Source of the DNA: a virus
Lineage: Duplodnaviria > Heunggongvirae > Uroviricota > Caudoviricetes
Virus record (IMG/VR): IMGVR_UViG_3300028549_003773
Reading direction: 5' to 3' (one strand)
DNA length: 64,000 bases
Both the position numbers and the translations under genes were made by a program. Below, in pieces: positions 3,932-63,293 of the stretch. A model generated the notes under the pieces. That model made no database searches and was not told the origin of the DNA. It saw only the letters and a list, made by a program, of their open reading frames with translations. Positions within the stretch are counted from its first letter, which is position 1. Every line of letters begins with the position of its first letter.

Positions 3932-3957
3932 ATAACAAACTTAATAGGAGGTATAGT

Positions 3958-5580: not shown

Positions 5581-5703
5581 TAGTGGTACCGTTCTGCGAT
5601 GGGTTGGTAGTAGCTCCTGCTCTCTTCCGCCTTGTGGAAGTGGAGTTGGGGTTGGAGCTGGAGACATGGAGAATAGTGGTACAGCTCTGTGATGGGTTTG
5701 TGG
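5581..5703 (+). promoter_or_regulatory. tandem duplicated TAGTGGTAC(C/A)G..TCTG.GATGGGTT.GT elements (instances 5 and 6)
   Basis: two ~35-bp related copies at 5581 and 5674, upstream of the ATG at 5751. Confidence 0.4.
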
Positions 5704-5750
5704 GTGTTCCCTTACTCATATTTAACTAAATCTTTATTAGGAGAAAACGT

Positions 5751-25137: not shown

Positions 25138-25175
25138 ATTTTATAACCAATAATTTGACAAGACTAAATAATACC

Positions 25176-37408: not shown

Positions 37409-37843
37409 ATGTATACTACATTAAACACAACAGATTTAGAAGAATTTAAAAAATGTAGATTTGTCGTGTTTGATTACGTAGAAAACGAAAATCTTCGAAA
37501 AAATGGTACAGAACAGTTTAACATTTTTGTAGGTAACAACAAAAATGCATTCGTAGATAAGAAAAGACCTTTATTGTCCGGATTCTATTCCGAACAAGAC
37601 CGTATACTAATACTTAAAAATATATTTTCTCCAGTCAAAGACAAATTAGAAGATGATTTAAGTTATTTTAGAGTATTTTGTGATATGGTTATAGAAGAGT
37701 TCATCTTACTTGGAAAATCGAGAAACCTGACTTCATTAATAATTCATACAAATGAAGAGATATTATTAGAGTCTTTGTTTTCGTTCGATTTTAAAATTAA
37801 ATGTATAGGAAATAAATTTTATAAGGCATTTAAATCAATATGA
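37409..37843 (+). CDS. hypothetical protein
   Basis: 144 aa; ATG overlaps the previous stop. Confidence 0.5.
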   Translation: MYTTLNTTDLEEFKKCRFVVFDYVENENLRKNGTEQFNIFVGNNKNAFVDKKRPLLSGFYSEQDRILILKNIFSPVKDKLEDDLSYFRVFCDMVIEEFILLGKSRNLTSLIIHTNEEILLESLFSFDFKIKCIGNKFYKAFKSI

Positions 37844-39420
37844 TTACAAAATCTGCAGTAAAAATAGAAACATTTAAAGCTAAAGATCATTTAGCAGAAA
37901 TTTACGGAAGCCCTCAAATGACTTTTTCTTTCTTGTCAGCTCCAAAAGAAGGTAATAAGCAATGTTGTCTTCCGGTAAGATGCAGAGACTTTTTACAAGA
38001 TGCTATTAGAGCAACTTTAACAAAAAAGCCAGCTTCGATATATGGTTTTAAGTTTGATTATGAAAAGAATCCAAAGCTTGACATTTTAAGAACACGTATG
38101 TTGATTAACATACCGAAAGAAAGAACAGTACTAAAAACGGCAGATAAAATTATTGAAGACGGTTTAAAACTTATTCATTATTACGAAAATTTGGCTGGTA
38201 TAGTAACAAAAACTACTGTAAAAAGCAATGAAGAAGGTTACGTAGTAGTTGGTAGTAACTTTTGGATGTTTTCACCTGCTGTAATATCATTATACACGTT
38301 ACTGTTTAGATTGGGCGAGTATGATCTAAAATTTGAAACAGATAAAGATGACTTAGTAAAAGCATATGAATCTCTAGTAAATAAAAAAGAAACATATTCA
38401 GATTATGCCATAGAGTACCTAAGAGAAGTTTATAAAGTCTTGGAAGATTTTGTAAGATACTATAAACTTTCCATAGATGGGAAAAAATTTGATAATATAT
38501 ACTATGAAGATATCCCAATACGTAGCTTTCATGGTAATTCAGGTATTGTTTCTTTTTGTAATACAAATAAAGACGGTTTGTATAAAGAACAGTATGCAAA
38601 ATTCAAAGATTACATTGAAACTTCTATCAATGTACCAAGTATAGTATTTCCATATGGTGGTTTTGCGTATGTAACAACTCATTATGCTTCTAACAACTTA
38701 TACTTCGGATTGTTAAATGCTGAGGATAAGATTGTAACTGAAAGTTTAGATTCATGCAGAGAAGTAGTGTGTAGTAGATACAGATACCACTTAACTAAGA
38801 ATAAAGGTTTGACAAAAACAAAGTTGTTGGTTACAGCTTCAGGCATTTTAGATATTCCAACTAGAATTAAAAATTTTAAAGAAAAAATATTTTTTGCTAA
38901 AAGATTTGTCAACCATTTTGAAAAACAAGCTAATATACCATTGTCTAAAATATCATTGGTGTTTTTAAAAAGTAATAGTAGTAAAATTAAACAATTTTCA
39001 GCAATATTAACAGGAGATGCTGCGTGGGTTAGTAGTCCTGTAATGTTATCTACTTATATATTTTTGTTAAGAGTATCTTTTAAGACTTACGAAAAATTTG
39101 AAAATAAAGATAATATAACAGATGAAAATATAGCCAAGGCTTTTGATATTGATGTAAAACCAGGACTTTACAAAGTAGTAATAAGTGATCAAGCTATTTT
39201 TAAAGGTTATATAGATCAAATAAAGTTATTAATGGTAGAACGAAAAACTTTGTTCTTGAGTAAAGAACCAGCTATAAACTTTTTGACTCATGCTGATAAT
39301 GTGCCTATGAATAGCAGTAAAGTAGGAGTAGTTTCTTTACTTAAGAAAACAACAATAGATAAAACATTACTAAATAAATACGAGGAGTTGTTAAAAACAT
39401 GTCAAACAGGAGCACAATAG
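37840..39420 (+). CDS. hypothetical protein (526 aa)
   Basis: large ORF, start/stop-coupled to both neighbours; no motif recognised. Confidence 0.55.
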   Translation: MITKSAVKIETFKAKDHLAEIYGSPQMTFSFLSAPKEGNKQCCLPVRCRDFLQDAIRATLTKKPASIYGFKFDYEKNPKLDILRTRMLINIPKERTVLKTADKIIEDGLKLIHYYENLAGIVTKTTVKSNEEGYVVVGSNFWMFSPAVISLYTLLFRLGEYDLKFETDKDDLVKAYESLVNKKETYSDYAIEYLREVYKVLEDFVRYYKLSIDGKKFDNIYYEDIPIRSFHGNSGIVSFCNTNKDGLYKEQYAKFKDYIETSINVPSIVFPYGGFAYVTTHYASNNLYFGLLNAEDKIVTESLDSCREVVCSRYRYHLTKNKGLTKTKLLVTASGILDIPTRIKNFKEKIFFAKRFVNHFEKQANIPLSKISLVFLKSNSSKIKQFSAILTGDAAWVSSPVMLSTYIFLLRVSFKTYEKFENKDNITDENIAKAFDIDVKPGLYKVVISDQAIFKGYIDQIKLLMVERKTLFLSKEPAINFLTHADNVPMNSSKVGVVSLLKKTTIDKTLLNKYEELLKTCQTGAQ

Positions 39421-40310
39421 GTACCGATCCAGAATTTTTTGTAAGAAATAAAGAAGATGGTAAATTTGTAAATGCGGAAACAATGTTTCCAGGAACAAAA
39501 GAGAATCCTCATCTAATGAAAAGTGGTGCTGGACTACAAACCGACAATGTAGCAGTCGAATTTGCAAGCCCTGTAGGAAAAGATGGTAAAGATTTAGTTA
39601 AAAAATTAAGAAAAACATTTAAAGAATTGTTTTTGATTCTTCCTAAAGATAAAATATTGGATCTTTCACCATCGGTGTTATTTCCAGAAGATGAGTTGCA
39701 GACAGAGCAAGCACAATTGTTTGGGTGTTCCCCAAGTTATTGTGCATGGGATTTGGTAGAAAATGAAAAACCTAATGCAAAATTCAGTAACCTTAGAAGT
39801 ATAGGTGCCCATATCCATATTGGTAAATGCGATGGTGATGGTAATGACTTTCTATTGGACCCGTATGGTAAGATAGACACTGTAAGGATGTGCGACTGCT
39901 TGCATGGTATAATAAGCGTAATTTTAGACTCTTCAAAAGAAAGTGTAATGAGAAGAGAATTGTACGGTAAAGCTGGAGAGCATAGACCAAAAGAATATGG
40001 TGTTGAATATAGAACATTGTCACCGTTTTGGATGAAGAGTCCGAATCTGGTAATGCTTATAGACTCATTAACTATGGATGCATTACGATTGGTTAGAGAA
40101 GGAAAAAACAGTGACTTAATAGATGAAATTGGTGGCGCTGATGTTATACGTAATATCATAAATAATGGTGATATAAAATCAGCCGAAACAGTAATAGACA
40201 ATATATTAGTAAAATATATGTCTAAAGACTCAAAGTACTTTTTTGAAGAGTGTAGATCAGCTATTGATACTTATTCTTTCACAGAAGAGTGGCAAATAGC
40301 CACTAAATAA
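39399..40310 (+). CDS. amidoligase, glutamine-synthetase/GCS2-fold carboxylate-amine ligase (copy 1)
   Basis: N-terminal IGTDPEFFVRN resembles the G-x-E-E-E-F-x-L-V-D signature of YbdK/GCS2 ligases; central GAHIHIG; same two landmarks recur in three paralogs downstream. Confidence 0.6.
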   Translation: MSNRSTIGTDPEFFVRNKEDGKFVNAETMFPGTKENPHLMKSGAGLQTDNVAVEFASPVGKDGKDLVKKLRKTFKELFLILPKDKILDLSPSVLFPEDELQTEQAQLFGCSPSYCAWDLVENEKPNAKFSNLRSIGAHIHIGKCDGDGNDFLLDPYGKIDTVRMCDCLHGIISVILDSSKESVMRRELYGKAGEHRPKEYGVEYRTLSPFWMKSPNLVMLIDSLTMDALRLVREGKNSDLIDEIGGADVIRNIINNGDIKSAETVIDNILVKYMSKDSKYFFEECRSAIDTYSFTEEWQIATK

Positions 40311-40338: not shown

Positions 40339-41121
40339 ATGAAAATTGCAGTACCTATTTTTAGTGGTGACACAAGACTGTCTATTAATACGGCCTATTT
40401 GAACTATGTAAAATCGGCTAATATGGAGCCAATTCTTGTAAATGAGTTTAATAATCTACAAGAAATTGCGCAAGTTTGTGATGGTTTGCTACTACCAGGT
40501 GGAATTGATATTGAACCTACTTGGTATGGTGAAGAGAACGAAGCAAGTGACGGTTGTGACCCTGAAAGAGATGATTTTGAGCGAGCTGTTTTTCATGCTT
40601 TTATAAATAATGAAAAAAAGGTATTCGGAATTTGTAGGGGCTTCCAATTAATGGTAAGAGAATTTCTTAATGAGTACAAAGATGGCTGCAAAGGTTTATA
40701 TTATTGTCAGCATATCAACGGTCATTCATTGGCTTCTTCAAGAAATGCTCGAAGGAGTACACCGACACATAGCGTAAGTATAGTAACTAAAGCACTATAC
40801 AATATTCCAGCTGTTGAAGGAAAAAAGAGTAGTAGAATGTTTGTAAATTCTATGCACCACCAAGCTTTGCTTGCAGAACCACACAGATTTTCGTTTGTTA
40901 TACAGCAAAATGAAGCAAGTTTTCATTGCATTGCCGCCAGTGATGCAGGCATCAGCAAAGAAATGAATATGGCAGTTGTAGAAGCGGCTGACATGATGTT
41001 TCATGGTGTTACTGTAAGAGGTGTTCAGTGGCATCCTGAAGAACTACTTGATGTTGCTCTGCTAACTAATTACTTTACTGGAGCAGTTGCCGATGGAGCC
41101 AAAATCAAGTTACACAGGTAA
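40339..41121 (+). CDS. class-I glutamine amidotransferase-like / gamma-glutamyl hydrolase (C26 peptidase) family
   Basis: LLLPGGIDIEP, GICRGFQLM (nucleophile Cys), VQWHPEE (His-Glu dyad). Confidence 0.7.
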   Translation: MKIAVPIFSGDTRLSINTAYLNYVKSANMEPILVNEFNNLQEIAQVCDGLLLPGGIDIEPTWYGEENEASDGCDPERDDFERAVFHAFINNEKKVFGICRGFQLMVREFLNEYKDGCKGLYYCQHINGHSLASSRNARRSTPTHSVSIVTKALYNIPAVEGKKSSRMFVNSMHHQALLAEPHRFSFVIQQNEASFHCIAASDAGISKEMNMAVVEAADMMFHGVTVRGVQWHPEELLDVALLTNYFTGAVADGAKIKLHR

Positions 41122-41334: not shown

Positions 41335-41715
41335 ATGAGCGAATTAAAAGTTTTTGTTTATGGTACTTTAAAAGTAGGTGGAAAATTTGCTGCCACCTAC
41401 GATAAAGTAAGAAAAAGTGTAAAAGTTGGCAAAATAAAAGGTACATTATATAATTTAGGCTTTTACCCAGGAGTAAAACTCGGTGGTGATAGTGTAGTTA
41501 TTGGGGAAGTACATACTTACACTAATAAAGAAGAAGTTGAAAAGTCATTGGATAGATTGGAAGGATATTACGGAACTGGTAATAAATCAAATCTTTATAA
41601 TAAAGAAACAGTAAAAGTAAGCACAGACGATGGAGATGAAGACTGTCTCGTATATGAGTACAATAACTTTATTGAAAATAATAGAATAATTCCAGAGGGA
41701 GTTTGGAAAGTATGA
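41335..41715 (+). CDS. gamma-glutamyl cyclotransferase (GGCT/AIG2-like)
   Basis: VFVYGTLKVGG ... LYNLGFYPGV ... VIGEVHTY ... LDRLEGYY is a typical GGCT fold signature. Confidence 0.7.
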   Translation: MSELKVFVYGTLKVGGKFAATYDKVRKSVKVGKIKGTLYNLGFYPGVKLGGDSVVIGEVHTYTNKEEVEKSLDRLEGYYGTGNKSNLYNKETVKVSTDDGDEDCLVYEYNNFIENNRIIPEGVWKV

Positions 41716-41971: not shown

Positions 41972-42652
41972 ATGAAAAAACTTATTTTGTTAGTAGCTGG
42001 ATATGGTTATGAGAAACCTTTTAAACAAATGGGTGAATTAGTAGAAGACATCGATTTGTTTATGCAATCGCCTGAAAAGTTCAAACTTGTTGTATTTACC
42101 GGTGGAGAAGATGTACACCCGGCAATGTATGGTCATACTTCACCAAAAGGTCTTTGTTATTTTAATGCGGCAAGGGATGTAAAAGAGCAAATAATTTATG
42201 AATTTGCTAAAGATAACAATATACCAATGACAGGTATCTGTAGAGGAAGTCAATTCCTAAATGTAATGGCCGGTGGTACATTAATGCACCATATAGATCA
42301 TCATGGAACAATGCATTATATTGAAACAATCGATGGTACAGTTATGAAAGTTACTTCAACACATCATCAAATGTGTGTGCCAGCAGAAGATGGCTTTGTT
42401 GTAGCTTGGTCTGAAACTAAAAGATCTGAAAGATATTTTGGCGATAAAGATGCTGAAGTAGCTTACGATGGTAAAGAAGTAGAGGCTATTTATTATCCCG
42501 ACAAGAAAATTTTCGCCGTACAATACCACCCGGAATACATGGATGATAAAAGTATGGGACTTACATGGTATAAGCAAGCTGTTCATGACCTGGTACATTC
42601 TACAACTGCTGAATTTAAGCGTAAGTATTTCAAACAGCAGATGGTAAAATAA
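41972..42652 (+). CDS. class-I glutamine amidotransferase-like / gamma-glutamyl hydrolase (second copy)
   Basis: VVFTGGEDVHP, TGICRGSQFLNV, VQYHPEYM. Confidence 0.7.
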   Translation: MKKLILLVAGYGYEKPFKQMGELVEDIDLFMQSPEKFKLVVFTGGEDVHPAMYGHTSPKGLCYFNAARDVKEQIIYEFAKDNNIPMTGICRGSQFLNVMAGGTLMHHIDHHGTMHYIETIDGTVMKVTSTHHQMCVPAEDGFVVAWSETKRSERYFGDKDAEVAYDGKEVEAIYYPDKKIFAVQYHPEYMDDKSMGLTWYKQAVHDLVHSTTAEFKRKYFKQQMVK

Positions 42653-50668: not shown

Positions 50669-51772
50669 ATGGAATTAAAAAAATCTAGTACTATGTCAGC
50701 ATTACCAAGCGAAAATAATACAATTCGTATGTCAGAAGAACTACGAAAAAAAATGAACGTGTCTCCAGGAGATATTCTGGTTGTTAAAGGATTTCCGCTA
50801 CAAGTAAATAAACTTTTTGCAAAAGATATTTGTTCTAAAAACAAAGCATTTGTTTCTGAAAAAGTATTGAAAGAATTAGGTATAGAGACACATGAACTGT
50901 CTGTAGAACAACATGTGTCTATTGGGTGTGACCCAGAATTATTTTTAGTAGATACTACTACTAATAAGTTGTACAATCCAGGATTTATTGTAAAAAAAGA
51001 AGCAACTGTAGGTTACGATGGTATGTTAGCAGAGTTTAGGCCGCCACCAGATGTGGATCCAAAACAGGTGACTTACAATATATGGCAGCTTATAAAATCC
51101 CTAAAAAGTACATTAGAAAGTAAAGATCTTACTAATGTTAGAATGGTATCCAGATCAAGTGGTTGGGGTCTTTTTGCTGGTTTCCATGTACACCTAGGTA
51201 TCCCAAGAAATTTACTAAACCCAACAAAAGAAAATTATTTAAAAATTATACAAATCATAGTAAGTTCCTTAGATTATTACTTAGGTACTTTATCTGTGTT
51301 AGTAGAAAAAGATGATTACGAAAGAAGGTGTTCACCATTTACACCATATGGCAAAGTTGGTGATTTTAGAGCTGATAATCATATAACACTCGAATATAGA
51401 GTTCCTGGTGGGGCTTTGTTGAGTCACCCATATTTAACAGATGGGCTTTTAAATATAGCGTCTCTTATTACACACGATGTTATAGAGAGGGTGCGTATAA
51501 TTACAGATGATTTTCGTGGTGTTATTGATGACGATAAGGCGCTTTTGAAGCATATATACCCTAACATTGTTGAAACTACAAAAATGTATGATATTATATG
51601 TTCGCCAAACACAAACGCAGCAAGTATGGAGCTAGCTACCATACAAAAAGATTTAAGTTGTATGGTAAATTACGACTATTACAAAAAGTCTATAGATAGT
51701 TTTTATAATTTATTAAAAGTTAAAATATCAGATGATATACTAACAAACTGGGATAATACTTATGTACAATGA
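50669..51772 (+). CDS. amidoligase, GS/GCS2-fold carboxylate-amine ligase (copy 2)
   Basis: IGCDPELFLVD ... GMLAEFRPPP ... GFHVHLGIP parallels copies 1 and 4. Confidence 0.55.
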   Translation: MELKKSSTMSALPSENNTIRMSEELRKKMNVSPGDILVVKGFPLQVNKLFAKDICSKNKAFVSEKVLKELGIETHELSVEQHVSIGCDPELFLVDTTTNKLYNPGFIVKKEATVGYDGMLAEFRPPPDVDPKQVTYNIWQLIKSLKSTLESKDLTNVRMVSRSSGWGLFAGFHVHLGIPRNLLNPTKENYLKIIQIIVSSLDYYLGTLSVLVEKDDYERRCSPFTPYGKVGDFRADNHITLEYRVPGGALLSHPYLTDGLLNIASLITHDVIERVRIITDDFRGVIDDDKALLKHIYPNIVETTKMYDIICSPNTNAASMELATIQKDLSCMVNYDYYKKSIDSFYNLLKVKISDDILTNWDNTYVQ

Positions 51773-53378
51773 CAAGTGGAAATTTTTTAACAACTTACCT
51801 GGAAAAGAAGCGTTAAGCTCGGCTGAAGTGCAATATTGGTTAAGTATATTAAATAAAGTATTAAAAACAGGGGTAGAATTCGAGTTCAACTTGAAAGAAC
51901 CAAAAGGTTTTTGTAAAGGTGGAAGTGAAAGTTGTCCCTGCATAAAAATGACAGAAGATAATGATTGTTGGAAAGTATGTCTTTTACAAAATACATGTAA
52001 GAAGAAATTCAAAACACAAGAAGAATTTGAATTAAATTGTCATGGAAAGTTTTGTGTTAGTTTCAAGAGCGCTTGTATTTCCTGTAAATTTTCTAAAATT
52101 GATTGTACAAAATGTAATTATTTATTAGATACAAGTAGCGATCCTGAAAGTATAAGACAACAATTGAAAAATGCCTTTGACCCATCCAAAAGTTACGGCA
52201 ATTTATCTAAAAGTGGTGTACATAGTGTAGTTACCGATGGGTCACTTTTAGGTGGCGAGGGTAAAGAAAAAGGCGTAGAAATAATTACAGTTGGTCGAAG
52301 AATAGATTATTGGGAGTTTTATAACATGTTATCAAACATAACAAAAAACTCTATCAATAAAGGAGCATATGTAAATGAAAGGTGTTCGACACACATACAT
52401 GTTTTAGCTGGTTATTTAGATGCTGTTGAGAACAACAGTAATTTCAGAACAGTAAGTGAGTTAGAAAAACCTATGCCTCAAATAATAGTTGCTAATTTTC
52501 ATCAACTTTGTAGAAGGTACCAAAATGCTATTACTTGGATGTCTATGGGTTTAGATAATCCTGAGCATTTAACAAGATGGGAGAAATATAGAGTTTCAAT
52601 ACTTGATACTTCTCCAGTAACTATGTCTATGGAAGACATAATTCATAAATTAGAAGAAATAAGTTTCAAAAACAGAGGTAAGTACGCTTGGGTAAACTAC
52701 ATGTATTCTAAATCAAAAGGTTCGTCAGCTGAATTAGAGAGATTTCATGTAGAGATGAGAGTATTAGATGGTATGATGTCGGCAAGTGTTGTTGCAGCAA
52801 TGTGTTGTTTATTCCATGCTTTAGTAATAAAAGCTGTAGAAATATCAAGATATGGTTTGCTAGAACTTGGTTCTCTTCCATGGTTTGAACAAACTAAGGA
52901 TATAAAAAGCAGGTTACTAAACAATGCACCAGAAGGATTTAGTGAGAATAGACTTTCAGATACCATGGATTTACTTCCAAAACATCAAGATATATTAAAA
53001 GTTGAATCTTATGACTTACTTAATCAAATAAAACATATACTTATGAGAACTGGACCTGCTTTTGAAGTATTAGAAAAATTGGCAGAAAAACCAGTAGCGT
53101 TTCATAGATGTGAAGGTAAGAACTGGGAAGAGATTGAAAAACATTTTGAAATTTTCAGAGAAGAAGAAACAATACTGGAACAAAAAATTAATGAAATAAT
53201 AGATTTCCGTATTGTTATGCGTTGTGAAAACGACAAAGTATGGAGTGATAAAGTTGCGGCATTACTTGAGAAAGAAGATATAGCTTCAAAAAATCAAATA
53301 CCTGAAATCATTTCAGCTAAGATTAGAAATGGTTTATGTATTTGGTCATCTTCTTTGGGTACTGTGTTGAAAGTATAA
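51762..53378 (+). CDS. Cys-rich N-terminal domain fused to amidoligase-like domain (copy 3)
   Basis: about 10 Cys in residues 50-120 (CKGGSESCPC, CxxC pairs); SVVTDGSLLGGEGKEKGVEII ... RCSTHIHV echoes the ligase GxHIH landmark. Confidence 0.45.
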   Translation: MYNDKWKFFNNLPGKEALSSAEVQYWLSILNKVLKTGVEFEFNLKEPKGFCKGGSESCPCIKMTEDNDCWKVCLLQNTCKKKFKTQEEFELNCHGKFCVSFKSACISCKFSKIDCTKCNYLLDTSSDPESIRQQLKNAFDPSKSYGNLSKSGVHSVVTDGSLLGGEGKEKGVEIITVGRRIDYWEFYNMLSNITKNSINKGAYVNERCSTHIHVLAGYLDAVENNSNFRTVSELEKPMPQIIVANFHQLCRRYQNAITWMSMGLDNPEHLTRWEKYRVSILDTSPVTMSMEDIIHKLEEISFKNRGKYAWVNYMYSKSKGSSAELERFHVEMRVLDGMMSASVVAAMCCLFHALVIKAVEISRYGLLELGSLPWFEQTKDIKSRLLNNAPEGFSENRLSDTMDLLPKHQDILKVESYDLLNQIKHILMRTGPAFEVLEKLAEKPVAFHRCEGKNWEEIEKHFEIFREEETILEQKINEIIDFRIVMRCENDKVWSDKVAALLEKEDIASKNQIPEIISAKIRNGLCIWSSSLGTVLKV

Positions 53379-53421
53379 AATAAAGGGGAGAGAAATACTC
53401 CCCTAAACAATTAGGTAATAT

Positions 53422-54171
53422 ATGGGCGGAATTTTTGGATTAACATTATTAAAGAATAACAAACTAGAGAAAGACAAAATTGGCAAAATTATTAATAGCT
53501 TGCTAAGAAATTTTCTAGGAGAGACAGTTTCAGCCAGTTTGGTGGCTACATCAGAAAGTAGAATAGATGTTATAAAAAGAAATCATAACTTGGCAAAATT
53601 CATAAATTCTCCAGAGTGTATCAAATTTTTAGCTGATGCTAGTGAAACACAAAACTTGTACTCAATTATAGGAAGTTTTAAACGTAGAGCTTTTTTAGTA
53701 AACACTGAAGTGCAGAATAGTATTATGACAAATATTGGTAAAACAGTATGTGTGAATAAAGATGTTTTTTTGTATAATTCTGAATCCACAAGCGAAAAAA
53801 TAGTTACGGTAATTGACAAAGTATTATCTGAAAAACAAAACGAAACACCAAGATTTCATAGTATGTTCGCAGAAGCTGCTAAAGTTGGTAATAACACACA
53901 AATGTACGCTTGTGTTAATGCTTTCTACCCATCATTGACGATTATTACGAAACACACGGTGGACCCATTATACATAAGTTTGTTTGAGGATTGTGGTGTT
54001 GTTGTCTTTTCTTCTCTACGAAATAGTCTTGTTGAATTAAAAGAAACTTTTAATTTGGGAGAAATGAAAGACATTGAAATATGTTCAAAAGAAGCCATGG
54101 TTATATGTGCTAAGAACAATACAATAAAAGAAGTAAACATTTTTGCAGGGTTAATAGGTACTACAATATGA
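53422..54171 (+). CDS. hypothetical protein
   Basis: 249-aa ORF within the ligase cluster. Confidence 0.5.
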   Translation: MGGIFGLTLLKNNKLEKDKIGKIINSLLRNFLGETVSASLVATSESRIDVIKRNHNLAKFINSPECIKFLADASETQNLYSIIGSFKRRAFLVNTEVQNSIMTNIGKTVCVNKDVFLYNSESTSEKIVTVIDKVLSEKQNETPRFHSMFAEAAKVGNNTQMYACVNAFYPSLTIITKHTVDPLYISLFEDCGVVVFSSLRNSLVELKETFNLGEMKDIEICSKEAMVICAKNNTIKEVNIFAGLIGTTI

Positions 54172-55718
54172 TTATCACAGAAAAATTATTCCTACAAGAT
54201 AGAGTTGTTTATGAAGGAGTATTAAAAAGAACTTTACAACCAGTTTTATTTGAAATAGTTGAAGAAAAATATTTATATTATTTCACACAGTTTTCACAAA
54301 ATAGACTAATGTCATCTTGGGAAATTTCAAGTGCGAGATTTAATAATATAGAAAAAACTTCAGATAAACCTATAAGACATAAAGTCTACACTAAAAATGA
54401 AGTAGAATTTTTAAGTAAGTATAAAGAATGCGAAGTAACTTTAGATTTTTTGCTTGAGGAATTTAGTGGAAAAAAAAGATGCTCGTTTGAATTGTCTCCT
54501 GATGATGCCAAAAGTATAGTTGGTGATTTAGTACTTTTTGGTAAAAAATTTAATTATTTTGTTAATGTATATTCACACTCTAATAAAATAACTGTAACAA
54601 AAAATACGTTAGAAAGATATAAAATAGTAATGTCTTTTTTCTCACTAAATACTATAGTACCTAATTTTAAAAAAGCACCTTTAGATGGTATTGGTATTTC
54701 TATAGGGGTGATGGATACAAATGCAAGCAAAAGATATCGTCGCCCAATATTTACAACTGAAGACTCATTAGTAATTACAAATGATAATATATTTTATTTG
54801 GATTGTGTGAAAATTATGAATTATTCAAATCCAAATATAAACAAACTATTAACAATTATAAAAAGTACAGAAGTTGTAAAAGAAGATGATTCTGACAGAG
54901 AAATTGGAGAACTACTTTCACTTTCTAAAGCTGCGTCGGAATGGCAAATCAAAATTAATACAGCGGTAAAAAGAGACGCATCTGCTAGTCGTAAATCTGC
55001 GAAAAAACCAGCAATACCAACAGTACCATTGGCTGATATTGACAGAGTATTTTATGAAGAACGTGCTCCTGTTAATGAGCATGTTGCCGAACTGGTACCA
55101 GTAGAACCGCCTATACCTGAAGGTTGGGCGCAACGTATGGACAATCCTGAACCACCTATGCCAGAAGAAGCACCGCTTGTAATGGAAGAACCTAAATTAT
55201 TCGAGCAATCTTGTAAACTTTCTGAATATAATATTGATGGAATTAGTTGGTCTGGTAAGCCAGAATCAGTACCTTTGGGTCAATACATGTCAAAAGTAAG
55301 GACTTCATTAAAAGTGAAAAATGTTGACAGTTCAAAAATTAAATATTGGAAAAATGAATTCATAGGTGATGACTCAATTTCAAATAAAGTTGTCGCATCT
55401 ACAAAAACATATGCCAATGTTAAAGTACCACAAGATGTAGATGCAAATTGGTTCTCTGATGATGAGGAAGATAAACGAATTAATACTAAATCAACCGAAG
55501 AAACAGGCAAACTAATACGAGAAATTTCTATAGATATGCAGAAAAGGATGGATTCAGAAGTATGTAAAACCGTGACATGTACGTCAGAAGGTTTAATTCC
55601 AAATAAAGAAAATATTTCGTATCCTACAGAAGTTTCAGAAGCTATTGTTAAATGTTCCGCAAGTACAAAAGGACATTCTCCGATTGTACAAAGATACATA
55701 AAGCTAGATGGAATTTAA
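54168..55718 (+). CDS. hypothetical protein (516 aa)
   Basis: start overlaps the previous stop; no motif recognised. Confidence 0.5.
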   Translation: MIITEKLFLQDRVVYEGVLKRTLQPVLFEIVEEKYLYYFTQFSQNRLMSSWEISSARFNNIEKTSDKPIRHKVYTKNEVEFLSKYKECEVTLDFLLEEFSGKKRCSFELSPDDAKSIVGDLVLFGKKFNYFVNVYSHSNKITVTKNTLERYKIVMSFFSLNTIVPNFKKAPLDGIGISIGVMDTNASKRYRRPIFTTEDSLVITNDNIFYLDCVKIMNYSNPNINKLLTIIKSTEVVKEDDSDREIGELLSLSKAASEWQIKINTAVKRDASASRKSAKKPAIPTVPLADIDRVFYEERAPVNEHVAELVPVEPPIPEGWAQRMDNPEPPMPEEAPLVMEEPKLFEQSCKLSEYNIDGISWSGKPESVPLGQYMSKVRTSLKVKNVDSSKIKYWKNEFIGDDSISNKVVASTKTYANVKVPQDVDANWFSDDEEDKRINTKSTEETGKLIREISIDMQKRMDSEVCKTVTCTSEGLIPNKENISYPTEVSEAIVKCSASTKGHSPIVQRYIKLDGI

Positions 55719-55783
55719 TCTATATAAATAAATCTGATAAAGGATATCCTTTAAAAATTATCAAAGCATAAAGGGAAAAATAT

Positions 55784-57640
55784 ATGTGTGGTGTTGTTGG
55801 CGTAGTCGCCCTTGGTAAACAAAAAAGCAAAATAAAAGCAACAATTATGGAGTATCTATTTACAGAAATACTCCAAGCAACCGAAGAAAGAGGTAAGGAT
55901 GCCACAGGAGTTTCAGCACTATTTAGAGATGGTATGTCTATAGTGCAGAAAGGATCTGTGACAGCAGCTGAATTCATAGGAAATTTAGGTAAAGAAGAAA
56001 CTACTTATAATAGTTTCATTAACAATTGTAGAAGTCATGTAGAAGAGGCTGACACTGCTTTGCAGCTTTATATGGGGCATTGCAGAAAAAGTTCTGTAGG
56101 TGGTGCCTTCGATAATGTTAATAATCATCCTATAAAAGTTAATGAAATCGTAGGTGTACATAACGGTACATTGCTAAATCACAACATTATATTTAGAACT
56201 CTTGAAGAAAAAAGAGACGGTGTTGTAGACACAGAAGCTATAATGCAACTACTTAATTATTACACCAATAAATGTAAAGAACCTTTTACACTTGATGGTT
56301 TGACAGAAGTAGCAAGAAGACTTGAGGGGTCTTTTTCAGTGTTGGCCTATAACGCCAATAATCCTTTTCAGATTTGTTTTATGAGAAAGGAAAGACCATT
56401 AGAAATGGCTATGATAAAAGATCTAGGTATATTTTTAATTTCTTCGGATAAAGCATTCTTTACAAGAGCTATATATCAGTATAATAAGTATGCCGCATTG
56501 TATTCCGATGGTTTACCTATTATTAATACCGATGTAGTTGAAGCATATACTTTTCCTTTGGATCATCTTGGAATTTTAGATTTAAATGTAGAGCTTGAAG
56601 AGGATACTGTAATTCTTGATATTATAAAGAAGTCTGATTTCTTTAAGTGTAATAAAATATGGCAAACACCTACAGTGCAAAAAACTACATATGTACAACA
56701 GCACAGTGGTAAAAAAAACGACGCCGAAAAGCCAAAAGAAACTCCAGACACTACAAAGGGGACTTCGACTCAAGAGCTTTCTAAAATTGACGGAACTACT
56801 AGTAAAGGTAAAGTCTTTTGTAGAAAACTAGGTGGCTATGTTCCGGCTGAGTTAGTAAAAAATACAGCTAAACTTGGACCAAGAATTTTTAATATTCGTG
56901 GTGGAGAAATATTAAATATTGACAATAAAACTGTGGATAAAGAAAACTCATCCAAGGAACTTATTGTATATGATAAGAACGTAAGTAATTCTAAAATAAG
57001 TCTTGATAAAGTATCATCATTTCCTATTAAAGCCAATGAAGAAGCTGTGCCTATTTACGTAGATGATAAAAACATTAGTACACCAAAAATAACTCTTGGT
57101 AAAACAATCACAGAGGAAGTACAAGGTCCTCCTCTAAAAATTATGGAAACCACAAAAGCTATTTCAGTTAATGAGGTTAAAGTTGTAGACGATGCTTTGG
57201 TTGAAATAATGAAGGCGGCTGATGAGTATTCAAAGAAAATTCCGTGCTGTTCAAGAGGAATTGAAGCCGCTGAAGTTTTAGGAATAACCAATGTTGACAA
57301 TTTAGACGAAGTACCAGCTCATATTATTGTTAATAAAGCAAGACTTTTAGCGTCATCTGAAGCTTTTACAGAAGGGGCTATGTGGGCTAAAAAGAATTTG
57401 ATAGGCGAGAACATACAAAAAGTAGTTAGAGTGACAAAGCATGTAGTAAGTATTTTTGGTTCTCTGATTACCAAATTAGCAAAAAATGATTCTTCACAAT
57501 ATAAGCCTTTTATGCAGAGTGAGTTAGATAAGCTTGGTAGTGGAGAAATTACGATAAACACAATGCAAAAAGTGTTCTCTAAAGGTAATCTAATAGAAAA
57601 TCCACCATTAAAAGTTCTTGAGGATTTAGTTAATGAATAA
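55784..57640 (+). CDS. class-II (Ntn-hydrolase) glutamine amidotransferase domain protein
   Basis: starts MCGVVGV (Cys2 nucleophile); GHCRKSSVGG, NNHP, VHNGTLLNH and DTEAIMQLL match the GlmS/PurF/AsnB GATase-II N-domain; ~400-aa C-terminal region unrecognised. Confidence 0.75.
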   Translation: MCGVVGVVALGKQKSKIKATIMEYLFTEILQATEERGKDATGVSALFRDGMSIVQKGSVTAAEFIGNLGKEETTYNSFINNCRSHVEEADTALQLYMGHCRKSSVGGAFDNVNNHPIKVNEIVGVHNGTLLNHNIIFRTLEEKRDGVVDTEAIMQLLNYYTNKCKEPFTLDGLTEVARRLEGSFSVLAYNANNPFQICFMRKERPLEMAMIKDLGIFLISSDKAFFTRAIYQYNKYAALYSDGLPIINTDVVEAYTFPLDHLGILDLNVELEEDTVILDIIKKSDFFKCNKIWQTPTVQKTTYVQQHSGKKNDAEKPKETPDTTKGTSTQELSKIDGTTSKGKVFCRKLGGYVPAELVKNTAKLGPRIFNIRGGEILNIDNKTVDKENSSKELIVYDKNVSNSKISLDKVSSFPIKANEEAVPIYVDDKNISTPKITLGKTITEEVQGPPLKIMETTKAISVNEVKVVDDALVEIMKAADEYSKKIPCCSRGIEAAEVLGITNVDNLDEVPAHIIVNKARLLASSEAFTEGAMWAKKNLIGENIQKVVRVTKHVVSIFGSLITKLAKNDSSQYKPFMQSELDKLGSGEITINTMQKVFSKGNLIENPPLKVLEDLVNE

Positions 57641-58931
57641 GTCTTTACTATTAATACCATCAACAGAGATGGATAGTGACCATAAAAAAGAGGATGTCTT
57701 AGTTAGGATGTCTAAGGAAACAAGAGAAACTATAGACTTTGATAAAATTAAAGAAGTTTCTCCTGAAATAAAAGATCTGAATGTTTTCAAAGCATTCACA
57801 AGAGATTTAATAAAAGCCAGACAACTTGTACTTGAAGGTGTACTTGCACACGAAGATTTGAAAAGAGTAGGCTTCGTGTCTTTTAACACCTTCAACAAGC
57901 TTGGTGGGCAAGGATCTTTTATTGACTTAACTAAGCTTCCTCAAGAAGTAAAAGTTGAAGAAAAAATTGTTATTGACAAACTTTTAATAGGTACTGACCC
58001 AGAATTATTGTTAATGTTAAAAGGAGAAGTGTACAACGCCTCTCAAGTAGCAGGTTTAACCAAACAAAGCAAATTTGGATGCGACGGACCAATGGCAGAA
58101 CTAAGACCTGACCCAGCTCTTGATGCTAAAGGTTTAGTTGAAAATATTAGAAGTGTGTTGCAGAATGATGATGTACAAGACAAAATACACAAACTTGATC
58201 TTATTAGCTCTTGTTATCATGAAGATAAGAACAGAGATTATCCTGTTGGTACACACATTCATATAGATAATCCAAAAGAGATAGCAAAATTACCAGCAAC
58301 TGAAAGGTATAATTTATTTGCTGTGACAAATAGGATTATTGATGAACTTTTGACATTACCTATGATACGTCTGGATGGTGATAAGGGTCATAATAGACGA
58401 GCTAAATGCAAAATGAGTATGGCTAATGGCTTTATAGGACAATATGGCAAAGGTTATGGATATTTTGGAGAATGGCGAGAATGTAATGGTAGACTTGAGC
58501 ACAGAAGCTTATCAGGGTTGGTACTATCCAGCCCTGAATTAGCTGAAGCCGTGTTTGGTACGGCTAAAGCTATAGCAGAAGCTGTTTATACTGAAGCTCT
58601 TCAAAAGAAGTTGGATAAGAAATTCATTTTACCTAATAAGTACAATTATAAGAGTATATACACAAGTGATTTTGCGGAGTGGGCTAAGATACCATTGGCA
58701 GCAACTTTTAAATGTGTAGGTCCTTCTAAAGAAATAGCAGATATGATGGATGCAAGTGATAGATCTATAGTAACACAGAAGTATATAAAAGATTGGTTAG
58801 TTAGAATCAGAGAATTATCAACTTATACTAAATTTTCTGAAAACATTGAAGCTTTGGGAGAAATTCTAAGTAGTTCAAACAAATCTCTTGACAGTATCAA
58901 TAAAAATTTAAAACAAACATGGAAGGATTAA
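57633..58931 (+). CDS. amidoligase, GS/GCS2-fold carboxylate-amine ligase (copy 4)
   Basis: LLIGTDPELLLML ... GCDGPMAELRPDPA ... GTHIHIDNP. Confidence 0.55.
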   Translation: MNKSLLLIPSTEMDSDHKKEDVLVRMSKETRETIDFDKIKEVSPEIKDLNVFKAFTRDLIKARQLVLEGVLAHEDLKRVGFVSFNTFNKLGGQGSFIDLTKLPQEVKVEEKIVIDKLLIGTDPELLLMLKGEVYNASQVAGLTKQSKFGCDGPMAELRPDPALDAKGLVENIRSVLQNDDVQDKIHKLDLISSCYHEDKNRDYPVGTHIHIDNPKEIAKLPATERYNLFAVTNRIIDELLTLPMIRLDGDKGHNRRAKCKMSMANGFIGQYGKGYGYFGEWRECNGRLEHRSLSGLVLSSPELAEAVFGTAKAIAEAVYTEALQKKLDKKFILPNKYNYKSIYTSDFAEWAKIPLAATFKCVGPSKEIADMMDASDRSIVTQKYIKDWLVRIRELSTYTKFSENIEALGEILSSSNKSLDSINKNLKQTWKD

Positions 58932-58935
58932 TAAA

Positions 58936-60003
58936 ATGGGACAAGAAACTTATGTGTGGTACTCACCTGCAACTGATGTAACTGGTAAAAAACTTATGGA
59001 AGCACTTGGGGCTTCTGGTGGTACTGCAAAACCAGCAGCAGGAAAAGAAAACGTAGTCTGTTGGGGAACTAAAACTGATGCCGCAGTATTGTTTGGTGCA
59101 GCAACTAAGCTTGTACTAAACCATCCGGATAAAATCAGAGTAAATAGAGACAAAGTAAATGCTCTTACTAAATTGAAGCAAAATCAAGTAAGTGTAGCTC
59201 CTTATACTGAAAATTTTAAATTCGCTGGTACAAAAGATTACCCATTTCCAGTAGTTTGTAGAACAAAATTCCACCAAGGTGGCGCTGGTTTTTGGCTGTG
59301 TCTTAATGAAGTACACATAGCTCAAGCAGTGAAAGAAGGTGCAAATTATTTGCAAAACTATATTAATATTCAAGATGAATATAGATTGCACGTAGTAAAA
59401 AATAAAGTTATTTATGCAGTACGAAAAGTACAACGAGACAATCATGCTGAAGCTTTTGTTGAGCATTACGGCGAACTGGTAACAGCAAAAGCTCTGAAAG
59501 GAGCTGTTAATCTTGATAAAAATACCATGGACTTTGTACTGAAAAAGTTAGCGGCTAAATTTGCTAATGGTACGGATATGATTATCAGATCAAATACGCG
59601 AGGTTGGAAATTTTCCAGAGTAGCAAATGAAAATCTGAATAATACACTTGTTACCGAAGCCGTAAATGCAGTAAAGGCTTTGGGTTTGGACTATGCTGCT
59701 GTAGATTGTTGCTTGGATACGACAGGTAAAGCTTATGTTATTGAATGTAATTCTGGACCTGGTTTGGATGGCAACTCATTTGATTCTTGGGTCGCTGCTT
59801 TTAAAGAACTCTTGGCTCCTCCGGCAGCTAAAAAGGTAGCAGCTGCTCCGGTTGAACAAAAGATAGCAGCACCAAAAGTAGCCGCTAAAGCAGTTGGAGG
59901 TAAAGCCAAACTTCAGGAAAAATTGGCTTTGTTAGCTCAGCTTGCTGATTTGGCAGATGACGATGAAGCAGCAGTTTTGCACAAATTAATCAATAAAATG
60001 TAA
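58936..60003 (+). CDS. ATP-grasp ligase (RimK/glutathione-synthetase-like)
   Basis: PFPVVCRTKFHQGGAGF (ATP-binding loop) and DYAAVDCCLDTTGKAYVIECNSGPGL, the canonical ATP-grasp C-terminal motif. Confidence 0.75.
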   Translation: MGQETYVWYSPATDVTGKKLMEALGASGGTAKPAAGKENVVCWGTKTDAAVLFGAATKLVLNHPDKIRVNRDKVNALTKLKQNQVSVAPYTENFKFAGTKDYPFPVVCRTKFHQGGAGFWLCLNEVHIAQAVKEGANYLQNYINIQDEYRLHVVKNKVIYAVRKVQRDNHAEAFVEHYGELVTAKALKGAVNLDKNTMDFVLKKLAAKFANGTDMIIRSNTRGWKFSRVANENLNNTLVTEAVNAVKALGLDYAAVDCCLDTTGKAYVIECNSGPGLDGNSFDSWVAAFKELLAPPAAKKVAAAPVEQKIAAPKVAAKAVGGKAKLQEKLALLAQLADLADDDEAAVLHKLINKM

Positions 60004-60026: not shown

Positions 60027-60461
60027 ATGGAAAAATTTATAACATTAGTGGATAATAAAGTAGTAGCTACACAAATTGCAGAATTAATTAATAAGCATAA
60101 TAATTTAAAAATTATCCATACTGATTCTTCTATATTAGAAAGTGCCGTACAATATATAATTGAACAACGTTATGTAAATGATACTTTAGTAGTGATAGGC
60201 TGCATTGGTATAAAAAAAGACCAAGATAAATTCTGTACAATACAACATTTGTGCGTAAAAGAAGGGTATAGAAACCAAGGTATAGCTACTAAACTACTAA
60301 ACGCGGTGACTGATTATGCAGATGCGGAATATGTAAAAGCTAGCGTTCGTCATGATAATATGGCAAGTCTAAAACTACTTAAAAAATTAAAATTTACAGC
60401 ATATGATTGTCTTGCAAAAGATGATTATTTCATATTAAAAGTATCCAAAAAGTTAAAGTAA
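60027..60461 (+). CDS. GNAT-family N-acetyltransferase
   Basis: IQHLCVKEGYRNQGIATKLL is GNAT motif A (Q/R-x-x-G-x-G/A). Confidence 0.6.
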   Translation: MEKFITLVDNKVVATQIAELINKHNNLKIIHTDSSILESAVQYIIEQRYVNDTLVVIGCIGIKKDQDKFCTIQHLCVKEGYRNQGIATKLLNAVTDYADAEYVKASVRHDNMASLKLLKKLKFTAYDCLAKDDYFILKVSKKLK

Positions 60462-60470: not shown

Positions 60471-61163
60471 ATGGAAAAGAGAATTAAATATATAGAAATA
60501 GGTATAGATCATGCTGGAATAAAAGAAACAGGTCTTCTTCTTCATTATGACCAAAATACAAAAAATATAAAAATAGTTAAAAGTCACAACAATGTGACTT
60601 GGTTTAATTTAGACATCTGCACAATTTGTAGTATTGTAGTACTAAAAGAAACATATTTGGCAGAAAAAGTAATTTTCAAAAATGAAGCACATCAAAAAGA
60701 AGCAATAGAAGAAATTTTAAGGCTGCTTACTGAATTAAAAACAGAAAATAGATGTGATGCTTCAGGATATATTAATTTGTCTTCATATGTTGATTATCCA
60801 GAAAAATATGAAGTACAACAATACAAAGGTAAAGATGACAATAGTGGTGTAGTAGATACTAAAAGGCTGAATGAAAATTATTTCCCAAATAAAGTACCAT
60901 GCAAAATAAAGCCATTTTTTCTAACAACCACAACACATTATTATAGTGTTGGCTTGGGTAACGCTAATAATAAAATAAGAATTTTGAAAAGGTCTTCAGA
61001 ATTACCAAGTGAAAAATCTTTGAAAAGTATGGAAAAAAAGGTAGAACAAGTTATGCTTTCCAATTATAAGTTAAAGGTTGAACCTTTGCCGGAGATTGCT
61101 GCTGATTACGTAGTAGAACGAACTTTTAATCAGCAATATTACGAAAATATGTACGGTATGTAA
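60471..61163 (+). CDS. hypothetical protein
   Basis: 230-aa ORF. Confidence 0.5.
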   Translation: MEKRIKYIEIGIDHAGIKETGLLLHYDQNTKNIKIVKSHNNVTWFNLDICTICSIVVLKETYLAEKVIFKNEAHQKEAIEEILRLLTELKTENRCDASGYINLSSYVDYPEKYEVQQYKGKDDNSGVVDTKRLNENYFPNKVPCKIKPFFLTTTTHYYSVGLGNANNKIRILKRSSELPSEKSLKSMEKKVEQVMLSNYKLKVEPLPEIAADYVVERTFNQQYYENMYGM

Positions 61164-63210: not shown

Positions 63211-63293
63211 GCAAGAGTGGTGGAAATGGCAATACACGAAGGTCTTAGAAGCCTTTGCTTAAATGATTGAGGGTTCGATTCCCTCCTCTTGTA
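63211..63293 (+). tRNA. tRNA-like gene (possible type-II tRNA, anticodon read as TAG/Leu but uncertain)
   Basis: canonical T-arm GAGGG-TTCGATT-CCCTC; 7-bp acceptor GCAAGAG/CTCTTGT with discriminator A; 3-bp D-stem GTG/CAC with a GG-containing loop; anticodon stem AAGGT/GCCTT with loop CTTAGAA; 13-nt variable region that does not fold cleanly. Confidence 0.45.

Follow-up and report, generated by a model that had tools for sequence, protein, structure and literature searches.

This locus raises the question of whether several carboxylate-amine ligase genes clustered in the genome of an uncultured giant phage are copies of one enzyme, and what product they would make together. The window, i.e., the whole 64,000-nucleotide stretch that was analysed, contains four ligase-type ORFs, and all features described here are on the + strand. 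A first-pass annotation had reported a four-fold amidoligase paralogy at 50669-58931. Ligases A, B, and C were inside this span, and copy 1 (39399-40310) was outside it. The four ORFs, all of the glutamine-synthetase/γ-glutamylcysteine-ligase fold, were identified as three PF14395 genes and one distant Amidoligase_2-type gene, so that a four-fold paralogy is an overstatement. The landmarks [D/E]xE, HxH, and ExR are kept in all of them, and their catalytic motifs are intact. No fifth ligase copy was found in the window.

Families of the four ligase genes

Membership of PF14395 (phiEco32-like COOH-NH2 ligase type 2) was assigned to proteins with a whole-protein score of at least the 25-bit gathering score, which was passed by A, C, and copy 1 only. 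Copy 1 (39399..40310), a stand-alone ligase, scored 38.9 bits and also matched phrog_3815 (4.4e-52). Ligase A (50669..51772) scored 61.7 bits (8e-17) and has an N-terminal extension of ~80 aa; ligase C (57633..58931) scored 59.4 bits (4.1e-16) and has an extension of ~115 aa. Pairwise alignment, which had been proposed as the test of the paralogy, was successful in part. In BLASTP, A and C aligned over 304 residues starting at residue 15 (25% identity, E 1.5e-11) and copy 1 and A over 72 residues (E 0.003), but B could not be aligned to A or C. The N-terminal extensions of A and C were found to be homologous by BLASTP and by alignment of the A and C orthologues; judging from their sequences, A and C are true paralogues with a common extra N-terminal domain. 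A tblastn search with copy 1 matched 319 phage records, LUZ24, tf, and Kuravirus among them, and phmmer matched it to LAh_9 gp058 (6.8e-35). Copy 1 is orthologous to the ligase of the podovirus cassette described below. No match in INPHARED was observed for ligase C, for ligase B, or for the region.

Ligase B (51762..53378) is a divergent carboxylate-amine ligase of the Amidoligase_2 type with the GS/GCL fold. Neither BLASTP nor phmmer nor hhalign matched it significantly to A, C, or copy 1, and Pfam gave no match above threshold, as would be expected if the four-fold similarity were coincidental and B were no ligase. No match to PF14395 was observed even at E <= 10, and the score against PF12224 (Amidoligase_2) was 12.9 bits (E 0.1), below the gathering score of 22 bits. 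Six of 42 homologues of B matched PF12224 weakly (best E 0.0011), and none reached the cut-off. Coincidence is nevertheless extremely improbable. B can be linked to Amidoligase_2 through relatives of ~430 aa that are devoid of the cysteines. In profile-profile comparison, this Cys-less branch (A2) matched the Amidoligase_2 alignment (A4) with a probability of 96.6% (E 5e-10, 175 columns) and matched B with E 7.8e-93, whereas direct comparison of alignment A1 with A4 covered only 32 columns, at 71%. The motifs GxExE, DGSL, RCSTHxH, and ExR are common to the B family and Amidoligase_2. The profile link and the common catalytic motifs indicate that B is homologous to PF12224.

Consistent with membership of the glutamine-synthetase/γ-glutamylcysteine-ligase superfamily, the fold of B matched solved members and the metal-/ATP-binding Glu/His/Arg residues are present. 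The best structural match was YbdK/GCS2 (PDB 1tt4), a small-molecule ligase, with 13% identity; B is 180 residues longer than this enzyme and the γ-glutamylcysteine ligases, and no sequence-level match to any PDB chain was found. A C-terminal helical domain of ~170 aa, specific to the B family, extends beyond Amidoligase_2.

The cysteine-rich segment of ligase B

The Cys-rich segment of B (51903..52130; 76 residues, ~48-123) had been described as an N-terminal fusion. The split match of B to the profile of the Cys-less relatives, by which its limits were set, showed that it is an insertion, located after the invariant E39-x-E41 strand (the first catalytic β-strand). The segment contains 12 cysteines rather than the about 10 first counted, all between residues 51 and 118 and all invariant or ≥98% conserved in 121 homologues with 45-68% identity, and the Cys richness itself is real and beyond chance. 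Relatives with 12 (64 sequences) or 16 (45 sequences) cysteines were counted. These counts are multiples of four and suggest three or four Cys4 metal sites; the insertion of B most likely forms three such sites, and that of the 16-Cys relatives four.

In zinc ribbons and treble clefs, a single Zn is bound by CxxC knuckles that are paired and sit on β-hairpins. The insertion was predicted to consist of helices and coil, the model of the isolated module had a pLDDT of 62, and no Foldseek match was obtained in the PDB; the zinc-ribbon/treble-clef module suggested earlier is therefore not supported by the model. Since the model is of low confidence and without structural match, we infer metal binding from the Cys pattern alone. 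The insertion is lineage-specific, and its role is probably a structural one or recognition of the acceptor or a partner protein.

Amidotransferases, neighbouring genes, and relation to known phage cassettes

As noted in the first-pass annotation, A, B, and C are clustered with a class-II glutamine amidotransferase (GAT-II). This gene, G2 (55784..57640), is intact and matched GATase_6 (39.4 bits against a threshold of 27 bits; 7.6e-10), phrog_4736, and the GlmS N-terminal domain (7e-19). Its Cys is residue 2, the N-terminal nucleophile of an Ntn enzyme after removal of Met1, and the motifs MCGVVG, HCRKSS, NNHP, HNGT, and RDG-VDTE are conserved. Behind the GATase domain come a variable linker and then a helical C-terminal region that is conserved; the C-terminal 330 aa had no family match and no recognisable synthase domain in Pfam and NCBIfam. 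By its sequence, G2 may just as well be an EgtC-type γ-glutamyl amidohydrolase instead of an ammonia donor.

A second gene, G1 (53422..54171), is a decayed small paralogue of the class-II GATase. It begins with MGGIFG (Cys1→Gly), which indicates that the Cys nucleophile is lost. Cys1, NNHP, and HNG are absent in the G1 copies of the window and of locus L001, and the former had no Pfam match. The syntenic orthologues in loci L004, L006, and L007 retain Cys1 (MC…), and those of L004 and L006 match GATase_6. G1, the GATase that adjoins B in the window, is catalytically dead. B-type ligases and small GAT-II genes are nevertheless neighbours in the phage clade, and the Cys-less B relatives adjoin GAT-II in locus L014 and in 20 of 22 bacterial loci. 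In locus L015, it is the Cys-less relative that fills the Amidoligase_2 slot, with PF14395, GAT-II, and ATP-grasp as neighbours, and in cable bacteria and other phyla a 157-aa protein, a B-like ligase, and GAT-II form a trio. This adjacency in phages and bacteria supports a functional tie of the Cys-rich ligase type with the class-II GATase.

The earlier gene inventory missed G1 and several other genes. Between G1 and G2 lies X (54168..55718), a fast-evolving protein of 516 aa found at the syntenic position in all loci. Its N-terminal ~245 aa are conserved and its C-terminal half, as seen by alignment and composition, is variable and poor in hydrophobic residues; only one homologue was found. 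Downstream of C are a RimK-like ATP-grasp ligase (58936..60003; PF08443 1.1e-9, phrog_2599 1.2e-31, rimK_fam), also among the genes missed, and a GNAT acyltransferase (60027..60461; PF00583 1.2e-13, nearest NCBIfam RimI), likewise overlooked and syntenic in all loci. Upstream, next to copy 1, the additional genes encode a Peptidase_C26/class-I GATase-like protein, a candidate γ-glutamyl hydrolase (40339..41121; PF07722 3.4e-28), an AIG2/GGACT-like γ-glutamyl(amine) cyclotransferase (41335..41715; PF06094 1.7e-17, phrog_2520), and a second Peptidase_C26/class-I GATase-like protein (41972..42652; PF07722 6.5e-24). The second Peptidase_C26 gene is also upstream of the cluster in loci L001 and L008.

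The order helicase-A-B-G1-X-G2-C-ATP-grasp-GNAT-U-RuvB-like was kept in contigs up to 304 kb, with identity of B down to ~45%, and the module was syntenic in contigs of 230-304 kb. Neighbouring genes overlap by 11 nt (A/B), 4 nt (G1/X), and 8 nt (G2/C), and C is separated from the ATP-grasp gene by 4 nt. The set is split into two sub-clusters about 8 kb apart, and copy 1, the two C26 genes, and the GGACT gene are located about 10 kb upstream; given the distance between the sub-clusters, their cooperation is only assumed. The surroundings consist of transcription, replication, and RNA-repair genes.

That this cluster is a variant of a phage cassette already described had been overlooked. PF14395, an Amidoligase_2-type ligase, GAT-II, ATP-grasp, and GGCT are all in the window, and the same components, with or without GGCT, are present in Kuravirus Paul, Aeromonas phage LAh_9, and the LUZ24-like UFV-P2. 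Copy 1, the ATP-grasp ligase, and G2 matched their counterparts in Paul and LAh_9; for the ATP-grasp ligase, the profile matches were 1e-23 (Paul) and 6e-26 (LAh_9), and it is orthologous to the podovirus protein. In the phiEco32/LUZ24/RIO-1 cassette, as in the window, PF14395, Amidoligase_2-type ligase, class-II GATase, RimK-like ATP-grasp, and GGCT/AIG2 genes share one early/middle-gene neighbourhood. The window differs in having three PF14395 genes, two of them with the new N-terminal domain, two GAT-II genes, one of them dead, and the additional GNAT, X, U, and two C26 genes. Moreover, its Amidoligase_2 slot is taken by a far more divergent family with the C-terminal helical domain and the 12-Cys insertion, its set is split into two sub-clusters, and the genomes are those of jumbo phages (230-304 kb here) instead of podoviruses (45-98 kb). 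The module is probably a jumbo-phage, expanded version of the phiEco32/LUZ24/RIO-1-type amidoligase cassette. The cassette has been known from bioinformatic prediction since 2009, the functional statements in the literature all trace to prediction, and no experimental characterisation of any member was found in the searchable literature.

Possible pathway and its acceptor

Most likely, the genes together serve to assemble and trim a Glu/Gln-rich isopeptide on some acceptor in several ATP-dependent steps. We infer the chemistry and the order of steps as follows. In the cytoplasm of the infected cell, the proteins would together form a short assembly line that works without ribosomes. Each GS-fold ligase would activate a carboxylate, most likely the Glu α- or γ-carboxyl, as an acyl-phosphate and join it to a specific amine; the ATP-grasp ligase would add a further α-linked residue. 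The amidotransferase would hydrolyse glutamine and deliver the ammonia to one of the activated carboxylates, which would thereby become an amide, and B would be its most probable ammonia-receiving partner since genes for B-type ligases and small GAT-II proteins lie side by side in phages as well as in bacteria. The GNAT protein would cap a free amine, and trimming, recycling, or release of γ-glutamyl links would fall to the C26 and GGACT enzymes, with a small Glu/Gln-rich (iso)peptide on the acceptor as the product. Points against this pathway are that B does not align with A or C and scores too low for PF12224, that G1 next to B is dead, and that G2 is devoid of a known acceptor or synthase domain. 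Several sequential, substrate-specific ligations, as already proposed in the first reading of the sequence, fit the gene content, the intact motifs, and the successive ligation steps predicted by others for the related podovirus cassette (PMC4431377, PMC5498523, PMC10580990).

Amidation of a Glu carboxylate by an ATP-dependent ligase and a separate glutaminase occurs in MurT/GatD-type pairs, and formation of iso-Gln by B and G2 would resemble this arrangement of ligase plus separate glutaminase. However, MurT belongs to the Mur-ligases and GatD to the class-I (triad) GATases, whereas the window has a GS-fold ligase and a class-II (Ntn) GATase, the coupling of which is only putative.

Several acceptors are conceivable, each of them individually unlikely. 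Cell-wall precursors are a tentative candidate; their stem peptides would be remodelled via γ-glutamyl, iso-Gln, and D-Ala-type links, so that the surface is changed and superinfection blocked. It is established that a set of γ-glutamyl ligases, ATP-grasp, and amidotransferase suits the bond types of stem peptides. The podovirus cassette has been named the 'peptidoglycan modification cassette' (PMC5498523), and the cell wall is the standing hypothesis for it in PMC5498523, PMC10580990, and PMC11318856, all of which cite Iyer et al. 2009 and/or Hardies et al. 2013. However, the searchable literature offered no experimental support for it, and neither in the cluster nor beside it was a Mur-ligase, peptidoglycan-binding, lipid-II, or export-related domain detected. 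The cluster is surrounded by the information-processing genes listed above, and the bacterial B-like/GAT-II modules are in signalling, not cell-wall, neighbourhoods.

An equally tentative candidate is a host or phage protein, modified by RimK- or PafA/Dop-like peptide tagging or glutamylation. Target recognition would be the task of the N-terminal domains of A and C together with the Cys module of B, and C26/GGACT would remove the modification. Unlike the PafA/Dop system (pupylation ligase/deamidase), the cluster has no proteasome context and no sequence similarity to it, and no Pup-like gene was seen in its intergenic gaps, which leave no room for an ORF such as a small tag protein ending in GGQ/GGE. 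A bolder form of this proposal, which we put forward as doubtful, is a machine for tagging macromolecules rather than a metabolite or cell-wall pathway: the three Cys4 sites of B would, along with the N-terminal domains of A and C, dock a specific protein (or nucleic acid), five ligases would build an amidated, capped Glu/Gln isopeptide tag, and C26/GGACT would erase it. If true, this would be a phage-encoded reversible modification system, pupylation- or polyglutamylation-like, with the trio of 157-aa protein, B-like ligase, and GAT-II of cable bacteria and other phyla as its cellular relative.

The acceptor may, again doubtfully, be a small amine or free peptide, with γ-glutamyl-amines being made and broken (PuuA/PuuD-like, polyamines) or a capped, amidated di-/tripeptide similar to N-acetylglutaminylglutamine amide being formed, and the metabolite pool adjusted. 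The two Peptidase_C26 genes and the GGACT gene adjoining copy 1, as well as the structural likeness of B to the small-molecule ligase YbdK/GCS2, are in agreement with this. Furthermore, GNAT, ATP-grasp, and class-II GATase are combined as in the NAGGN pathway (Ngg + AsnO), and the weak match of the GNAT protein to TIGR03103 (E 0.0015) is a hint in the same direction only. However, five ligases with extra recognition domains and a scaffold-like conserved X seem excessive for such a product, and no transporter or polyamine-related gene is nearby.

Addition of amino-acid moieties to a modified base of phage DNA or tRNA, with the Cys module as a nucleic-acid-binding metal finger, is very improbable. 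In its favour, the cluster is flanked by genes for a helicase and a RuvB-like ATPase, with RNAP, CCA-adding enzyme, and RtcB nearby, and nucleic-acid binding is common among Cys4 modules. Against it, the ~30 window ORFs scanned included no base-hydroxymethylase, kinase, glycosylase/transglycosylase, or any other enzyme known from hypermodification, and we know of no precedent for GS-fold ligases acting on DNA bases.

Two further genes may belong to the proposed isopeptide assembly system, although their membership is uncertain. An ORF of 526 aa (37840..39420), taken from the ORF list, had no Pfam, PHROG, or NCBIfam match; its last 22 nt coincide with the beginning of copy 1, and it may act as a partner of this ligase. 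U (60471..61163), also without family match in Pfam, PHROG, and NCBIfam, is a protein of 230 aa that synteny and alignment showed to be conserved and always located after the GNAT gene, and its C-terminus forms an acidic/aromatic tail.

Relation of the ligase cluster to the podovirus amidoligase cassette

In the window, the ligase system represents a new and enlarged form of the amidoligase cassette of phiEco32-, LUZ24- and RIO-1-type podoviruses, which is known among phages but uncharacterised. In Kuravirus, Lahexavirus and LUZ24-like phages, the same families are found, namely a PF14395 ligase, an Amidoligase_2 enzyme, a class-II GATase (GAT-II) and a RimK-like ATP-grasp protein, with or without GGCT. 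The stand-alone ligase (copy 1), the ATP-grasp protein and the GATase G2 of the window each matched counterparts in the podovirus-type cassette. New are an uncurated family of ligases (B) with a 12- or 16-Cys insertion, a subfamily of PF14395 ligases (A and C) with an N-terminal domain, a pseudo-GATase, and a ligase-GATase pairing that reaches into bacteria. In three papers (PMC5498523, PMC10580990, PMC11318856), the podovirus cassette is called a peptidoglycan-modification or superinfection-exclusion system, a designation that goes back to what Iyer et al. (2009) and Hardies et al. (2013) had predicted; according to a 2023 paper, its functions remain to be explored (PMC10580990). No experimental test of the cassette was found in the literature; the cassette is widespread, and its annotation has relied on prediction alone for more than 15 years.

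Eight tightly packed genes, all on the plus strand, make up the cluster: ligase A (50669-51772), the Cys-rich ligase B (51762-53378), a small GATase-like gene G1 (53422-54171), a gene X without family assignment (54168-55718), the GATase gene G2 (55784-57640), ligase C (57633-58931), directly downstream of C a RimK-like ATP-grasp gene (58936-60003), and a GNAT gene (60027-60461). The last two lie directly 3' of the region to which the first-pass annotation had assigned the finding (50669-58931), and copy 1, which it had included, is also located beyond this region, at 39399-40310 (plus strand). B and G1 are separated by 43 nt, which contain a G+C-rich hairpin (GGGGAGAG…CTCCCC, 53384-53404) with a T-run on the minus strand, the only sizeable structured spacer within the cluster.

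A and C passed the Pfam gathering score of PF14395, and copy 1 matched this family with 38.9 bits and phrog_3815 at 4e-52. In the window, a PF14395-type profile detected exactly copy 1, A and C, and an Amidoligase_2 profile detected B only. A and C aligned over 304 residues (25% identity, E 1.5e-11); since the alignment spans an N-terminal extension absent from copy 1, they are true paralogues. Copy 1 matched 319 phage records and is the orthologue of the stand-alone ligase in LUZ24-, phiEco32- and LAh_9-like phages. The four-fold paralogy originally proposed really consists of three PF14395 members plus B, which did not align with the others, within one superfamily; all four ligases keep the [D/E]xE, HxH and ExR landmarks.

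Two Peptidase_C26 proteins and a γ-glutamyl(amine) cyclotransferase (GGACT) adjoin copy 1. A 526-aa ORF without family match (37840-39420, plus strand) overlaps the start of copy 1 with its end by 22 nt and may be its partner; podovirus cassettes have two unannotated genes in the same position, 5' of the PF14395 ligase.

Ligase B and its cysteine-rich insertion

No significant similarity of B to A, C or copy 1 was found by BLASTP, phmmer or profile-profile comparison, and B had no Pfam match above threshold (PF12224 only at E 0.1). That B might be a diverged PF14395 copy was rejected, as hhalign of the B profile against the profiles of A, C and A plus C gave nothing. Searching the PDB chains by sequence with the B profile also returned nothing meaningful. 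B belongs to a large, unannotated family with at least 537 members in 90% clusters and at least 241 clusters at 50% identity. The AlphaFold model of B, built with 42 homologues, had a pLDDT of 81 and a pTM of 0.78, and when it was compared with predicted viral structures, the best 10 named matches were all annotated as amidoligases, including those of phages tf, LAh_9, Vp_R1 and CW02.

The family relationship was traced through Cys-less relatives of B, approximately 430 aa in length. Their profile matched B at E 7.8e-93 and the Amidoligase_2 alignment (Kuravirus gp88 homologues) with 96.6% probability (E 5e-10, 175 columns). Direct comparison of the B-family profile with Amidoligase_2 gave a 32-column match only, so these intermediates were needed for the link. 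The invariant motifs GxExE, DGSL, RCSTHxH and ExR are common to the B family and Amidoligase_2. These profile links and shared motifs indicate that B is not a PF14395 paralogue but a ligase of the Amidoligase_2 type that has diverged far and has an additional helical domain at its C-terminus.

The Cys-less profile matched B in two pieces, on either side of residues approximately 48-123, indicating that the Cys segment is a lineage-specific insertion (nt 51903-52130) and not the N-terminal fusion proposed at first; the cysteines follow the strand bearing the invariant E39-x-E41. In 121 homologues, twelve cysteines (C51, 58, 60, 69, 73, 79, 93, 98, 105, 108, 115 and 118), rather than the estimated 10 or so, showed conservation of at least 98% or were invariant. 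Family members have either 12 (64 sequences) or 16 cysteines (45 sequences) in the insertion, the extra block adding exactly four, and no conserved His was present in the insertion in the alignment of B-family homologues. As the cysteine counts are multiples of four, three or four Cys4 metal sites are predicted, for which zinc would be the default guess and Fe-S the alternative.

The segment was modeled weakly (pLDDT 47-86 in the full model of B and 62 in isolation), mostly as helix and coil, and Foldseek found no similar solved structure for the isolated segment; a zinc ribbon or treble clef, as suggested in the first-pass annotation, was therefore rejected as unsupported. Its observation was thus confirmed in part: three PF14395 ligases plus B, the GATase and the Cys richness stand, and the N-terminal zinc-ribbon fusion does not. 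Its interpretation is likewise supported in part. The class-II GATase of the Kuravirus Escherichia phage Paul (gp087; L009, 8935-10623) has a C-terminal extension with several CxxC pairs, suggesting that Cys-rich modules sit on different cassette components in different phages. One viral amidoligase match in BFVD was annotated as LIM-domain-containing.

Amidotransferases and the predicted chemistry

Class-II (Ntn) glutaminases are marked by an N-terminal Cys and by HCR, NNHP, HNG and DTE motifs, all of which G2 carries, in agreement with the initial claim that such a GATase is clustered with the ligases. The GATase domain of G2 is joined by a variable linker to a C-terminal region that is helical and conserved, and Pfam and NCBIfam scans found no known synthase domain in the protein. 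A second small GAT-II, G1, was overlooked in the first reading. In more distant relatives, its orthologues begin with Met-Cys, and those on two related phage contigs (L004 and L006) match GATase_6. In the window and its closest relative, G1 starts with MGGIFG and has lost the other GATase motifs; by these sequence features the G1 of the window is a pseudoenzyme, providing a clear example of the decay of a catalytic partner.

A Cys-less B relative occupies the Amidoligase_2 slot beside PF14395, GAT-II and ATP-grasp genes in one viral contig (L015) and lies beside GAT-II in a second (L014). In bacteria, 20 of 22 loci (L016-L037) contained a conserved trio, in which a Cys-less B-like ligase is accompanied by a 157-aa protein and a small class-II GATase; the loci were from Candidatus Electrothrix, Desulfobacterales, Caldilineaceae and Acidobacteriota MAGs (e.g., L017, 6128-10123). 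On the Electrothrix YB6 chromosome, the trio has three REC-DUF4388 response regulators and a Roadblock/LC7 protein as neighbours. Such adjacency suggests that the B-type ligase and the class-II GATase form an old functional pair, and this pairing in phages and bacteria is the best available support for the earlier idea that the GATase serves a ligase. The uncurated ligase family that the window defines is recognisable by its conserved partnership with a small class-II GATase and by a datable insertion of a 12-/16-Cys module.

By analogy with the chemistry of these families, each GS-fold ligase would activate a carboxylate, probably that of glutamate, as an acyl-phosphate before transfer to an amine, and the ATP-grasp protein would add an α-linked residue. 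G2 may direct glutamine-derived ammonia to amidation of one activated carboxylate, most likely with B; GNAT could cap an amine, and the C26 and GGACT proteins could cut γ-glutamyl links for trimming, release or recycling. The acceptor is comparably likely to be a cell-wall precursor, as suggested in the literature, a protein, or a small amine or peptide, and unlikely to be a nucleic acid. Nothing is overturned by these results; a long-standing unknown is narrowed to testable pairs and residues, the B-family features offering handles on the cassette product in the form of pairs to co-express, residues to mutate and a metal to seek.

Genome setting and conserved gene order

The window is AT-rich (G+C approximately 31%), and the genes examined and almost all long ORFs are on the plus strand; positions 1-6000 have 41-45% G+C versus approximately 31% elsewhere. 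Its phage-like content includes a single-chain β/β'-like RNA polymerase, a ResIII helicase, a RuvB-like ATPase, RtcB, a CCA-adding enzyme and a NADAR protein. Metagenomic contigs carry identical or almost identical copies of its genes, and syntenic relatives lie on contigs of 230-304 kb, indicating that the source is an uncultured jumbo phage. Among 50,697 deposited phage records, megablast found no match to the cluster region at the DNA level, and tblastn found none to B, C, a Cys-less relative or the RNA polymerase-like protein. The latter (45074-48337, 1087 aa) contains a DFDGD motif and matches RNAP β weakly in PHROG; its orthologues on related contigs match Pfam Rpb2_6 and Rpb1_2 weakly. 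The protein resembles a compact single-chain β/β'-type RNA polymerase.

The order helicase-A-B-G1-X-G2-C-ATP-grasp-GNAT-U-RuvB-like was kept in six independent contigs, with identity of B down to approximately 45%. That an entire clade of uncultured jumbo phages has kept this enlarged, strictly syntenic cassette speaks for an important role during infection. X is constant in position in every relative and diverges very fast; a word-indexed search returned a single homologue (85% identity), and its C-terminal half varies in length and has few hydrophobic residues. U (60471-61163, plus strand), a conserved protein without family, always lies 3' of GNAT. Its orthologues have acidic, Tyr/Gly-rich tails (e.g., …YYENMYGM and …YEGMYGGY), and it is pure speculation that the tail might be substrate-like for the neighbouring ATP-grasp protein.

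A link to thymidine or deazaguanine hypermodification was set aside, as no enzyme of such a pathway was present in the ORFs scanned. A scan for sigma-70 promoters remained at chance level (58 found versus 61 expected). In a related contig (L005, 6353-8824), the orthologue of the ResIII/DEAD helicase of the window (49217-50602) is split by an intein with a LAGLIDADG endonuclease. A set of RNA-repair and ADP-ribose-reversal genes, consisting of a NADAR plus DUF488-N3 protein (3072-3899), an RtcB RNA ligase (25155-26291), a CCA-adding enzyme (32840-34171) and one tRNA-Leu (63211-63293), shares a genome arm with the ligase cluster.
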